Source: a virus
Lineage: Duplodnaviria; Heunggongvirae; Uroviricota; Caudoviricetes
DNA length: 44,882 bases
Reading direction: 5' to 3' (one strand)
Virus record (IMG/VR): IMGVR_UViG_2872678658_000005
Span: 1-44,882 of that record
A program made the position numbers and the translations under genes. The notes under the pieces are model-generated. The model worked only from the letters and a program-made list of their open reading frames with translations, had not been told where the DNA came from and searched no databases. Positions 6,126-8,868 of the stretch are shown piece by piece (the first letter of the stretch is position 1; each line of letters opens with the position of its first letter).

Positions 6126-6818
6126 TTAATTGTGTCGCTTAAGGGTTTGTGACTGGCTGATTAAGACCTTTCCAAAGACCATAAACCGGTGTTCATTTTC
6201 GCTGGTAATTCCCCATTCACGGTAAATCTGGTTATCAGAAATCACCAGTAGTTTGTCAGGTATCATTTGCAGTCGTTTGACATAAATTTTATCATCAAAA
6301 CCAAAGACATAGATACCATCTCCATCAAACTGATTGATACTGACATCAACGAAGATGAGATCTCCTGGCTCAATGGTTGGACACATACTGTCCCCACGAA
6401 CGTTGATAACTTTAATGTGATTGGCTGGCCGTCCGCCAAACATCGATACAGCATTATCAGTTCTGTATTCAATGGCATGAATCACATCAATGACATCACC
6501 GCCCTGGATAAGGCCATTTCCCGCACTGGCACTGACATCCAGCATTTCAATACGGAATACATCCTTCACCTGCGCAACATCCTCACTAATACTGTTTTTA
6601 CATACAGTATTACTTTTGAAGTCTGAGGTAAAGAGATCAGCAATATCAACACCTAAGCTCCTGGCAATATTACTCAGGGCTTGTTCAGTGAATTGTTTCT
6701 GCTTACCTGTTTCCAGGCGTGAGATATTCGCCGCATCCACTCCTATTGCTTCAGCGAGATCGGCGATTTTCATGTTCTTCGCCTGGCGAAGTTGTCTGAC
6801 TCGGTTTCCTATGTTCAT
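6126..6818 (-). CDS. CI-like repressor (HTH plus S24 LexA-like peptidase domain, 230 aa)
   Basis: N-terminal XRE-type HTH (KIADLAEAIGVDAANISRLETGK); C-terminal domain with the GDSM serine motif and a downstream lysine typical of autocleaving repressors; divergent from cro. Confidence 0.85.
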   Translation of the reverse strand: MNIGNRVRQLRQAKNMKIADLAEAIGVDAANISRLETGKQKQFTEQALSNIARSLGVDIADLFTSDFKSNTVCKNSISEDVAQVKDVFRIEMLDVSASAGNGLIQGGDVIDVIHAIEYRTDNAVSMFGGRPANHIKVINVRGDSMCPTIEPGDLIFVDVSINQFDGDGIYVFGFDDKIYVKRLQMIPDKLLVISDNQIYREWGITSENEHRFMVFGKVLISQSQTLKRHN

Positions 6819-6915: not shown

Positions 6916-7176
6916 ATGCAATCACCATTACGGAATGTGCGTAAGGCGCACGGATTTACTTTGCAGCATGTTGCTGCTGGCGTTCAGGTCAATCCAGCGA
7001 CGCTGAGTCGTATTGAAAGACTGGAACAAATTCCATCTATCGATCTTGCAGAACGTCTGGCCAATTTTTTTAAGGGTGAAATCAGCGAAATGCAGATTCT
7101 TTATCCGGCACGTTTTCAATCTAGCCAAAACCAGAATGGGTTTAAACCACAGGAACAGGAGGTAAGCCGTGGGTAA
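6916..7176 (+). CDS. Cro-like HTH regulator (86 aa)
   Basis: Translation with XRE-type HTH (HGFTLQHVAAGVQVNPATLSRIER); GGAGG RBS; divergent from the repressor. Confidence 0.75.
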   Translation: MQSPLRNVRKAHGFTLQHVAAGVQVNPATLSRIERLEQIPSIDLAERLANFFKGEISEMQILYPARFQSSQNQNGFKPQEQEVSRG

Positions 7177-7720
7177 TCATCACTGGAAAGTGGAAAAACA
7201 GCCTGAGTGGTACGTGAAAGCTGTCAGAAAAACTATCGCGGCGTTGCCGGGGGGTTACGCTGAAGCTGCTGAGTGGCTGGATGTAACAGAGAACGCTTTA
7301 TTCAACCGCCTTCGTGCAGATGGCGATCAGATTTTCCCGCTGGGATGGGCAATGATTTTACAGCGTGCTGCTGGCACTCACTACATTGCGGATGCTGTCG
7401 CACAGTCTGCTGGTGGGGTGTTTGTATCGCTTCCTGAAATTGAGGAAGTAGAGAACGCAGATATAAACCAGCGCCTGCTGGAAGTCATCGAACAGATCGG
7501 GAGTTACTCAAAGCAGATTCGTTCGGCAATCGAAGATGGGGTAGTGGAGCCACACGAGCAGACAGCAATTAATGATGAATTGTATCTGTCAATTTCGAAG
7601 CTCCAGGAGCATGCGGCACTGGTCTACAAAATTTTCTGCGCTCCAGAAAAGAGTGACGCCCGCGAGTGTGCAGCTCCGGGCGTCGTGGCGTTTTGTGTCT
7701 GTGGAGAAACTAACGCATGA
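7169..7720 (+). CDS. CII-like / YdaT-family regulatory protein (183 aa)
   Basis: GTG start 8 nt after a strong AGGAGG; occupies the cII position after cro; family assignment is from recalled similarity, not a search. Confidence 0.55.
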   Translation: MGNHHWKVEKQPEWYVKAVRKTIAALPGGYAEAAEWLDVTENALFNRLRADGDQIFPLGWAMILQRAAGTHYIADAVAQSAGGVFVSLPEIEEVENADINQRLLEVIEQIGSYSKQIRSAIEDGVVEPHEQTAINDELYLSISKLQEHAALVYKIFCAPEKSDARECAAPGVVAFCVCGETNA

Positions 7721-8322
7721 ACAGTTTAACGGCAAATAACCGTTTGTCGCAACAGCTGGTGGTCAGTGTCGCTGCACACCTGTTGTTACGGCATGAATGC
7801 AGATTACCAAATCACCTGGCTGTAAGTAACCACAGAGAACTTTACCTGACTGTGGGGGGCGAGTTGTGCAGGAACTTAACCGCTGGTTTCGTGACGGAAG
7901 AGGACTTTATGTTCATGTTATTCGTTGGGAGCCAGAAACACAGCGCGTTATCTATCTTCGCAAAGACTACCCGCATGAGTGCTTTAGTCCTTTGTGGAAA
8001 TTCAGGCGTGATTTTGTTGAGTGTGAAGGACCACCAGCACATTGATTCTGCCATTCCGGGACGTTACACTGTTCAGGCACCTTATAAAGCGGGTGCCGGG
8101 CGTGGAAACCCGGAATTCACCAAAGCGCACAACCGCGCTCTTGCGGTTTTTTTGTGTCATGAGCAGCATTACGCCCAAATTATGGTGGGGCGTGCAGGGC
8201 CAACTTCGGTTGGGCCGGGTTCTTTGGTGACCGGTATTTCCACCCCTGTACGTCTCACCACCAATAAGGTCGTGGAAAGCCTTGGTGGTGAGTTATTAAA
8301 AATCACCAAAGAGGCTGCCATC
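7717..8322 (+). other. ambiguous 600-bp segment: open in frame with the downstream Rha gene, but contains terminator-like and hairpin structures
   Basis: ATG at 7717 overlaps the stop of the CII-like gene (ATGA) and the frame stays open for about 200 codons into Rha; the translation is not recognisable and a hairpin plus T-run lies inside at about 8131-8153. Confidence 0.25.
8131..8153 (+). terminator. candidate intrinsic terminator (tR1-like)
   Basis: AACCGC-GCTCTT-GCGGTT hairpin followed by TTTTTTT. Confidence 0.4.
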
Positions 8323-8868
8323 ATGGCTACGATCCCAACCCTCACTCAACCTGAAATTGCCATCGTTGATGGTCAGGCTGTTACTTCATCCCTGGCTGTT
8401 GCCAACTTCTTCTCCAAACGTCATGACGATGTACTGAAAAAGATCCGCACGCTTGAATGTTCCGCATCATTCACTGCCCGCAATTTTTCGGTGAGTGATT
8501 ACACCGATTGCACAGGCCGCAAACTACCTTGCTATCAAATAACCCGCGACGGCTTTGCGTTTCTTGCTATGGGTTTCACGGGTAAACGTGCTGCCCAGTT
8601 CAAAGAGGCATACATCAATGCCTTTAACCAGATGGAGAAACAGCTTTCAAAGCCCGCTGTACCGAGCGACGTTGCACATAACGCCAGCGTTCTCTGTTCC
8701 TACATTTCATCAATTCATCAGGTCTGGCTGCAGCAGCTTTATCCTATGTTGGCAAAAGCCGAATCTCCGCTGGCTGTTAGCTTATATGACTATATTAATG
8801 ATGCTTCGGCGCTGGCCTGCCTCATAAATTTGTCGCTGAACCCTTCAGAGGTAAGGGGGCGCAAATGA
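8323..8868 (+). CDS. Rha-family phage regulatory protein (181 aa)
   Basis: Internal ATG giving MATIPTLTQPEIAIVDGQAVTSSLAVANFFSKRHDDVLKKIR...ITRDGFAFLAMGFTGKRAAQFKEAYINAF, the canonical N-terminal pRha domain; AAGAGG upstream. Confidence 0.75.
   Translation: MATIPTLTQPEIAIVDGQAVTSSLAVANFFSKRHDDVLKKIRTLECSASFTARNFSVSDYTDCTGRKLPCYQITRDGFAFLAMGFTGKRAAQFKEAYINAFNQMEKQLSKPAVPSDVAHNASVLCSYISSIHQVWLQQLYPMLAKAESPLAVSLYDYINDASALACLINLSLNPSEVRGRK

Follow-up and report, generated by a model that had tools for sequence, protein, structure and literature searches.

A C4-type antisense RNA module lies inside an open reading frame that runs into a Rha-family gene of a lambdoid prophage

Results

Two RNA genes lie inside the reading frame upstream of Rha

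We analysed a stretch of 44,882 nucleotides (nt) of tailed-phage DNA (IMG/VR record IMGVR_UViG_2872678658_000005, positions 1 to 44,882; hereafter the window), and in particular the segment 7717–8322 that separates a CII-like gene from the gene of a Rha-family regulator. The segment contains a small DUF4222 gene and two RNA genes of known type, IsrK and the C4 antisense RNA, followed by a leader with targets for C4 (Table 1). A 383-amino-acid (aa) open reading frame (ORF) crosses all of these and enters Rha in frame. A first-pass annotation of the segment had set the long ORF and a small RNA (sRNA) against each other as alternatives; the comparative data support both, as a single sequence with two uses.

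Table 1. Features of the segment upstream of Rha and of the adjoining genes (window positions).
Feature	Position	Strand	Details
CI-like repressor	6126–6818	minus	LexA/UmuD-type cleavage domain
Cro-like gene	6916–7176		
CII-like (YmfL) gene	7169–7720	+	NCBIfam phage_reg_YmfL (E = 4.4e-50); Pfam Phage_CP76; PHROG CII-like activator
Long ORF, 383 aa	7717–8868	+	Shine–Dalgarno (SD) sequence GGAG at 7703–7706; crosses the RNA genes in frame into Rha
DUF4222 gene, 59 aa	7866–8045	+	GTG start; +2 frame of the long ORF; Pfam PF13973; phrog_1343
Predicted sigma-70 promoter PisrK	8042–8070	+	−35 TTGATT (8042–8047), 17-nt spacer, −10 TACACT (8065–8070)
IsrK/seqA-type sRNA, 77 nt	8077–8153	+	Rfam RF01394
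Target a1, GTGGAAA	8102–8108		Loop of IsrK hairpin 2
Target b1, TCACCAAAG	8117–8125		Single-stranded stretch of IsrK
Intrinsic terminator	8131–8153		Stem 8131–8148, T run to 8153
C4/CI-type antisense RNA, 88 nt	8178–8265	+	Rfam RF01695
In-frame AUG	8182–8184	+	Transcript position +106; context AAUUAUGGUGGGGCG; no stop before Rha
Element b', CTTTGGTGA	8222–8230		Loop of C4 hairpin 2
Element a', TTTCCAC	8237–8243		Internal single-stranded stretch of C4
Rha leader	8266–8322	+	Carries a2 and b2
Target a2, GTGGAAA	8272–8278		
Target b2, TCACCAAAG	8303–8311		Extendable to 8313
SD of Rha, AAGAGG	8309–8314		Overlapped by b2
Rha-family regulator (antirepressor-like), 181 aa	8323–8868	+	From ATG 8323; Pfam, TIGR and PHROG matches

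The Rfam isrK model is matched over its full length (model positions 1–77 of 77) with 67 bits, against a gathering score of 50. The match begins 7 nt past the −10 hexamer of the predicted promoter and ends at the T run of the terminator, so that the sRNA of about 80 nt postulated by the first-pass annotation is IsrK. A terminator scan recovers the hairpin and T run on which that proposal was built. The RNA opens with two 5' hairpins, the second of which presents the a1 target in its loop. A further Rfam model, c4-a1b1 ('a1, b1 targets of C4'), has a sub-threshold match at 8064–8116. The proposed promoter is present and is conserved in homologues, but it matches only 8/12 consensus positions and a sigma-70 promoter scan of 7600–8450 called no promoter. 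PisrK is therefore assigned by its conservation and by its position, which is homologous to that in P1 and P4; in P1, the −10 hexamer of the annotated promoter P1c4 (P51b) has the same spacing to an isrK-like match. Transcription from this promoter would start at about 8077.

The C4 model of Rfam is matched with 83.6 bits (gathering score 45), and the 88-nt RNA has a predicted folding energy of −44.6 kcal/mol (z = −4.1). Two further hairpins that had been attached to the sRNA reading do exist, but they belong to this second RNA gene, which had been missed. C4 carries two elements that can pair with targets on both sides of it. Element b' is complementary to TCACCAAAG at b1 and b2, and a' is complementary to GTGGAAA at a1 and a2; in the window, the upstream and the downstream target sets alike allow 7 (a) and 9 (b) contiguous base pairs (bp). 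Target b2 overlaps the SD of Rha, and it abuts or overlaps the SD in every module that we compared. Folded on its own, the Rha leader forms a hairpin that sequesters both the SD and the AUG (−27.4 kcal/mol, z = −4.3). A fold of the whole 254-nt transcript was not used to choose between long-range structures, as its minimum free energy structure has a frequency of 0.0004.

Covariation was analysed in 87 non-identical modules, 73 of which came from a scan of IMG/VR anchored on the conserved ribosome-binding site and start sequence. An earlier viral scan with a C4-core pattern gave 11 loci and was set aside, and a loose genome scan with ATTATGGTGGGN{60,72}CCACC returned mostly chance matches in unrelated phyla, so these loci were unused. 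Over the 87 modules the 27 stem pairs of C4 are canonical in ∼ 100% of cases, with compensatory changes in 14 of them, which supports its three-way fold. The pairing elements are highly variable (17 a' alleles, 32 b' alleles and 47 combinations), and they vary together with their targets: a C4 pairs with the targets of its own module over a median of 7 bp (a) and 9 bp (b), versus 3–4 bp with the targets of other alleles. The compensatory changes in the stems and the covariation of C4 with its targets argue strongly, on comparative grounds, that both the RNA and its pairings have a function.

The reading frame across the RNA genes is kept open

As noted in the first-pass annotation, the ATG of the long ORF overlaps the stop codon of the CII-like gene (ATGA, 7717–7720). 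From there frame 1 is free of stops for 202 codons up to the ATG of Rha at 8323–8325, 8322 being the last base before it. The three frames contain 0, 13 and 8 stops between 7717 and 8322. Only 7 of 20,000 dinucleotide shuffles of this segment left frame 1 without a stop. A chance open frame, already thought unlikely from the sequence of the window, is ruled out by these shuffles together with the distribution of stops across homologous modules.

Comparison with related prophages for stops and indels, which had been suggested as a check, points the same way. In 17 of the 21 modules of a first round, no stop interrupted the frame from IsrK across C4 to the downstream gene, and the other two frames were always closed. 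In the 15 modules with matching geometry, the interval from IsrK +1 to the ATG has no stop column in the ORF frame versus 21 and 15 distinct columns in the others. The frame is free of stops in 80 of the 87 modules of the full set; stops occur 15 times in the ORF frame and 149 and 314 times in the other two, and all 15 fall in seven modules of three minor subfamilies. Upstream of transcript position +106 there are three distinct stop columns in the ORF frame, all from the minor subfamilies, against 12 and 16. In 66 of the 73 IMG/VR modules, the ATG is preceded by at least 246 nt of open frame. Further upstream, three diverged versions of the 228–360 nt that precede IsrK have no stop in the ORF frame, versus 11/4, 11/7 and 6/2 in the alternative frames. 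Indels are of 3 nt and 6 nt and leave the downstream ATG in frame every time; the sole leader indel among the geometry-matched modules is of 3 nt. Where the upstream context is unrelated, an SD and an ATG in the ORF frame are found again shortly before the −35 hexamer, and the ATG often overlaps the preceding stop (ATGA).

The encoded residues show a different picture. Entropies at the three codon positions between IsrK and the ATG are 0.65/0.63/0.67, that is without codon periodicity, versus 0.53/0.43/0.88 for the Rha genes of the same loci. Since the frame is open in nearly all modules and yet varies without codon periodicity, selection appears to act on openness and not on the amino-acid sequence: as judged from these alignments, the frame is kept open under selection and the residues encoded upstream of 8323 are unconstrained. 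For the first part of the ORF (7717–7865), a comparison with phage ST64B gives 7 synonymous and 14 non-synonymous changes in the ORF frame, which is uninformative.

The small ORF in another frame, from GTG 7866 to TGA 8045, had been listed as a further possibility. It matches DUF4222 (PF13973) with 51.1 bits versus a cut-off of 27 (E = 9.5e-14) and phrog_1343 with E = 1e-36. Compared with a diverged copy (locus L023) it differs at 8, 6 and 29 first, second and third codon positions, with 24 synonymous and 10 non-synonymous codon changes; read in the frame of the long ORF, the same bases give 3 synonymous and 31 non-synonymous changes. This pattern indicates that DUF4222 is a genuine gene under purifying selection. 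It is annotated by the Prokaryotic Genome Annotation Pipeline (PGAP) in some genomes only. Its stop codon (8043–8045) falls within the −35 hexamer of PisrK. Across this gene, too, the long frame lacks stops in three diverged versions. A third copy of the a-type target GTGGAAA is found inside the gene at 7994–8000 (codons TTG TGG AAA); it may be there by chance, a 7-mer being expected about 0.05 times in about 800 nt.

Phage_ASH describes the translated RNA module

The translation of the extension had been called unrecognisable. However, residues 117–213 of the long ORF (nt 8065–8355) match the Pfam family PF10554, Phage_ASH, with 57.8 bits versus a cut-off of 26 (E = 1.7e-15). The same family matches the P4 eta ORF at full length over its RNA module (locus L031, 8330–8704) and N15 'cA' over the C4 part (locus L027, 413–538), and the 'ash family proteins' of PGAP are ORFs laid over further IsrK/C4 modules. 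Because eta, 'cA' and the PGAP ORFs all match over such modules, we interpret the Phage_ASH family as the translation of an IsrK–C4–target RNA module, a reading that comes from sequence comparison. The third-position excess expected of a protein domain was not seen in the PF10554 region (entropies as given above), and a functional Ash protein domain was rejected on the ground that variation lacks codon periodicity. The RNA genes are unmarked in all 15 annotated records examined, from lambdoid, P2-like and Klebsiella phages and prophages, and DUF4222 is annotated in some of these records only. The N15 record still labels its C4 region as a protein, 'secondary immunity repressor cA'.

The module precedes a Rha-family gene in an early operon

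The gene that follows the module is a member of the Rha family (PF09669 Phage_pRha, 106.1 bits, E = 1.4e-30; TIGR02681, 103 bits), and the PHROG matches of 8323–8868 are to Rha-like and anti-repressor families. Its first codons (window 8323–8340, MAT-I/V/L-P...) and the preceding GAGGCTGCCATCATGGCTAC are conserved among homologues whatever protein follows, be it Rha, P4 Kil or others. The start codons are thus conserved with the module, which places recombination junctions inside the coding sequence just past the start. Gene callers differ on where the protein begins, giving 383 aa in one genome and 297 aa plus DUF4222 in another.

The ORF list and profile searches identify the surroundings of 7717–8322 as the immunity and early region of a lambdoid prophage. 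Downstream of the long ORF follow, in order, a 74-aa ORF, an O-like replication initiator, a PerC-like activator and a DNA methyltransferase. Between 6916 and 11048 each ORF from cro to the methyltransferase overlaps its neighbour, with 4-nt overlaps at 7717, 8865, 9086 and 9901, which suggests one translationally coupled chain through the early operon. The long ORF fills what would otherwise be an untranslated gap of 278 nt, with an intrinsic terminator in it, upstream of the O-like gene. Near the left end of the window there is a gene for tRNA-Thr (CGU) at 1369–1444, which may mark the attachment site of the prophage.

Distribution and variants

Sequence matching 7700–8400 was found in 1,443 of 5,426 complete Escherichia coli genomes, at up to four places per genome, and in 246 phage records (mEp460, SfV, ST64B, cdtI and many Shiga toxin (Stx) phages). 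Mosaic breakpoints coincide with the edges of the module: many genomes share only 7700 to 8100 or 8127 and then continue with a different downstream module, and others share only the part from 8031 or 8077 to 8357 or 8385, in unrelated surroundings. isrK is followed by C4 in all 21 modules examined for order, including those of P1 and N15, most commonly as 77 + 24 + 88 nt. The pair is also present in P4 and Gifsy-1.

Several variants were observed. In E. coli AVS0969 (NZ_CP124475.1; locus L005, 735–2235), three IsrK–C4 modules stand in tandem with a period of 656 nt. Over each lies an ORF that begins in overlap with the preceding stop; the annotation names two of the three 'ash family protein' and the other 'Rha family'. 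Their target specificities are ATTGGCGT/GTCAACGG, TCGCAG/GTCAACGG and GTGGAAA/TCAACATAG. A Qin/Rac-like prophage of E. coli (loci L006 and L007, about 1715–2804) has an IsrK–C4–Rha module between the DicF sRNA and dicB, with a partial dicB pseudogene fragment just upstream and an intact dicB downstream; this looks like insertion of the module into the dicB leader.

The minor subfamilies in which the frame is closed (e.g. those with a GCTGG...CCAGT C4 hairpin) are represented by Stx2a_F765 (L029, 1097–1353) and by the IMG/VR loci L171, L173, L216, L239, L213 and L226. A stop lies 18–27 nt before the downstream ATG in L173, L216, L213 and L226, and about 620 nt free of annotated genes precede the module of Stx2a_F765.

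Comparison with known RNA immunity systems

The closest parallel is the immunity region of the satellite P4 (PLE promoter, seqA, t1, CI RNA, seqC and nested eta/kil). It gives an isrK-type and then a C4-type match, in the order seen in the window, and has targets both upstream and downstream of the antisense RNA. As in the window, an ORF (8812–8168, minus strand) begins ahead of the internal promoter, crosses both matches and shares its frame with the first regulated gene; it runs into a nested 65-aa ORF that begins MATTLTP. We identify these two ORFs as eta and kil. The junctions are alike (...EAAIMAT... in P4, ...KEAAIMATIP... in the window), and Phage_ASH covers the RNA module in both. The systems differ in the distance between the IsrK-like element and CI (108 nt in P4, 24 in the window), in their specificity alleles (GTGAGAA and TTCACAGG versus GTGGAAA and TCACCAAAG) and in their output, which is Kil (65 aa) and a satellite replication operon in P4 but a Rha-family regulator in a lambdoid early operon here. 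Unlike that of P4, the ORF of the window has its start 360 nt ahead of the IsrK 5' end and overlaps DUF4222. Function has been described for P4: as PMC10111431 summarises Forti et al. (1999), eta contains a constitutive promoter whose transcripts are terminated through CI/seqA interactions. Translation of full-length Eta depends on the upstream late promoter, is coupled to the upstream gene and keeps termination from occurring (PMC10111431).

Gifsy-1 also has isrK and C4 followed by an antirepressor-like gene. There, transcription from PisrK yields IsrK and, by read-through, an isrK-orf45-anrP RNA (Hershko-Shalev et al., 2016, PMC4825925). The longer RNA is made but silent in translation; IsrK in trans raises anrP translation 139-fold, and this translation requires that of the 45-codon ORF orf45 (PMC4825925). 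A stable processed RNA, STnc1160, lies downstream of IsrK, and the authors regard IsrK as a structural homologue of P4 seqA and suggest that the processed RNA may act like P4 CI (PMC4825925). Indeed, the Rfam C4 match in Gifsy-1 coincides with the STnc1160 (orf45') region, and the published compensatory pairs G28A/C162U and G31A/C159U (PMC4825925) fall in the a1 (ATTGGCGT) and a' (ACGCCAA) elements as we map them. The window and Gifsy-1 have a common AUG context at the 5' end of C4, AAUUAUGGUGGGGCG, which in Gifsy-1 is that of the first orf45 start codon. However, orf45 is a separate ORF whose stop overlaps the anrP start (ATGA), whereas the frame of the window enters Rha without a stop. C4 of Gifsy-1 has 84 nt and the spacer 25 nt, and its module follows the late antiterminator gene antQ, not an early-operon gene as here.

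The immI regions of P1 and P7 (c4, icd, ant1/ant2) share with the window the a' and b' elements of C4, the a1/b1 targets upstream and the a2/b2 targets over the ribosome-binding site of the first downstream gene. In immI, as in the cA–antirepressor region of N15, the output is an antirepressor, to which the antirepressor-like Rha corresponds. DNA similarity between the window and P1 c4 is 85% over 54 nt. In place of icd, the window has 57 nt from the C4 3' end to the Rha ATG and no separate ORF. Neither P1 nor N15 has a long ORF over the RNAs. Rha differs from the P1 Ant protein, and the upstream neighbours in P1 (the sim genes) are divergently transcribed.

A precedent for RNA matches inside such genes has been reported in satellites. 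PMC10111431 (2023) describes Rfam C4 and isrK matches inside Bro/Rha-type regulator genes of phage-inducible chromosomal islands (the 'Bro network') and invokes the P4 eta model. Those elements belong to satellites and ours to a full lambdoid prophage, and the passages of that paper examined here contain no analysis of frame openness, of missing amino-acid constraint or of covariation between targets and alleles. Within the literature that we examined, we found no quantitative demonstration that the frame is open but unconstrained, no figure for the a/b allele repertoire and no mention of the placement ahead of lambdoid replication genes.

Discussion

The identities of the two RNAs and the coding status of DUF4222 are established here, as are the covariation within C4 and with its targets and a frame that is open but unconstrained. 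The segment is almost certainly an RNA immunity switch of the type known from P4, P1, N15 and Gifsy-1, and the element of the window shares its parts with the immunity region of P4 and would work like it.

We propose the following model. In the lysogen, transcripts from the promoter at 8042–8070 would start at about 8077 and most would end at the intrinsic terminator, yielding the 77-nt IsrK. Those that read through would carry C4, which would be cut out and accumulate. The a' and b' elements of C4 would pair with a2 and b2 in the Rha leader. Because b2 overlaps the SD, Rha would then be untranslated, and downstream transcription would probably be cut short, by analogy with P4 and P1. The same two elements could also pair with a1 and b1, so that IsrK and C4 would titrate each other and C4 could feed back on its own synthesis.

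Upon induction, transcripts from the upstream pR promoter would carry the ATG at 7717, with its SD, for a frame that is open across promoter, IsrK, terminator, C4 and targets into Rha. Ribosomes moving along this frame would prevent both the folding of the RNAs and the binding of C4 to them. This would allow Rha, in the form of a longer fusion protein, to be expressed together with the replication genes in spite of the switch; eta plays this part in P4. We consider such a ribosome override probable, and the model as a whole, in which the switch silences Rha and translated pR transcripts escape it, is to our mind a reasonably likely best explanation of the locus. Promoter activity, read-through, silent translation, a1–a' pairing and orf45 coupling have been demonstrated by experiment in homologues and are transferred here by analogy; RNA processing, termination and override are likewise inferred for this prophage. 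C4 and CI are released from longer precursors by RNase P in P1 and P4.

Several points weigh against this model, in particular against the override. Between 7717 and 7865 the signal for translation is limited to the absence of stops and one 6-nt indel. The long ORF overlaps a genuine gene for 180 nt in another frame, which is unusual and would have one mRNA read in both. Between +106 and the ATG, an orf45-like upstream ORF could by itself explain part of the stop avoidance. The open frame is missing in 7 of the 87 modules and also in P1, N15 and a module of the Stx2a_F765 type; thus the override is not universal. The promoter match is weak and was not called by the scan. For Rho-dependent termination and RNase P processing the model borrows from P4 and P1, and our account of eta in Forti et al. 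(1999) is second-hand, taken from the PMC10111431 summary.

Alternatively, the switch could be real but the ORF upstream of about 8182 untranslated, with ribosomes reading only from the orf45-like AUG to Rha, as in Gifsy-1; on this view the open frame 7717–8181 is an artefact of gene calling, maintained by RNA conservation and chance. Within 7866–8045 the selected frame is indeed that of DUF4222, codon periodicity is absent everywhere in the extension, gene callers disagree on the start, and experimental support for translation is limited to the orf45 stretch of Gifsy-1. The modules of P1, N15 and some Stx phages do without such a frame. We nevertheless regard this reading as somewhat unlikely. 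It has to account for the deficit of ORF-frame stop columns upstream of +106, none of which occurs in the geometry-matched modules, for a frame that stays open in three diverged upstream versions, and for the SD and ATG starts, often ATGA, that reappear shortly before the −35 hexamer where the surroundings are unrelated. The arrangement also copies that of P4 eta, whose function has been described.

The readings that dispense with the switch fare much worse. That IsrK acts mainly in trans, as an Hfq-dependent sRNA on mRNAs of the host or of other prophages, with C4 a remnant and the link to Rha secondary, would suit its typical sRNA 3' end and its classification by Rfam as an Hfq-binding RNA; the presence of up to four matching places in one E. 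coli genome makes cross-talk between prophages possible. Yet the variable parts of IsrK, a1 and b1, track the C4 of the same module and not a fixed external target, C4 outscores IsrK and is structurally conserved, and the module is always followed by a regulated start codon at a fixed distance. We think this explanation very improbable. Least credible of all, and hardly tenable in our view, is a genuine 383-aa Ash–Rha protein of two domains in which the Rfam matches and the hairpin with its T run are incidental. Phage_ASH does score above its cut-off, PGAP and PHROG families include the extension, and the frame is open and conserved. However, the Ash region varies equally at the three codon positions where Rha shows a coding pattern, DUF4222 is coded in another frame inside the ORF, and no protein model accounts for 14 compensatory stem pairs in C4 or for the covariation of a and b with two distant sites. 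The N15 and P4 immunity factors, moreover, have been shown to be RNAs, and N15 'cA' matches the same Pfam domain. The choice between long ORF and sRNA, by which the first-pass annotation would have taken detection of a fusion protein without a small transcript as refuting the sRNA, probably does not exist.

The module may also do more than control Rha locally. It might act as a gate for all of the early-right operon, such that pR transcripts arrive at the O-like gene only with ribosomes that cross the terminator and the C4 targets; translation would then take the role that N/nut antitermination has in lambda. The a and b alleles (at least 17 × 32), which recombine freely, would give co-resident prophages a second heteroimmunity code, written in RNA. 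As a corollary, Phage_ASH would be a 'protein family' that owes its definition to RNA genes and in which only the openness of the frame is selected. We offer this combination of translation-gated checkpoint, RNA heteroimmunity code and RNA-defined family, for phages of the mEp460, SfV, ST64B and Stx2c-phage types, as a tentative and still rather doubtful proposal.

For annotation, the finding corrects an error that recurs in thousands of enterobacterial prophages: the 'Ash' part at the N-terminus of 'Rha family' and 'ash family' proteins is two regulatory RNA genes in translation. For phage biology, lambdoid prophages, Stx-converting phages among them, appear to use the RNA immunity logic of P4 and P1 also within their early operon, directly ahead of the replication genes. 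The outcomes of induction and superinfection could therefore depend on whether the RNA alleles of the prophages match.

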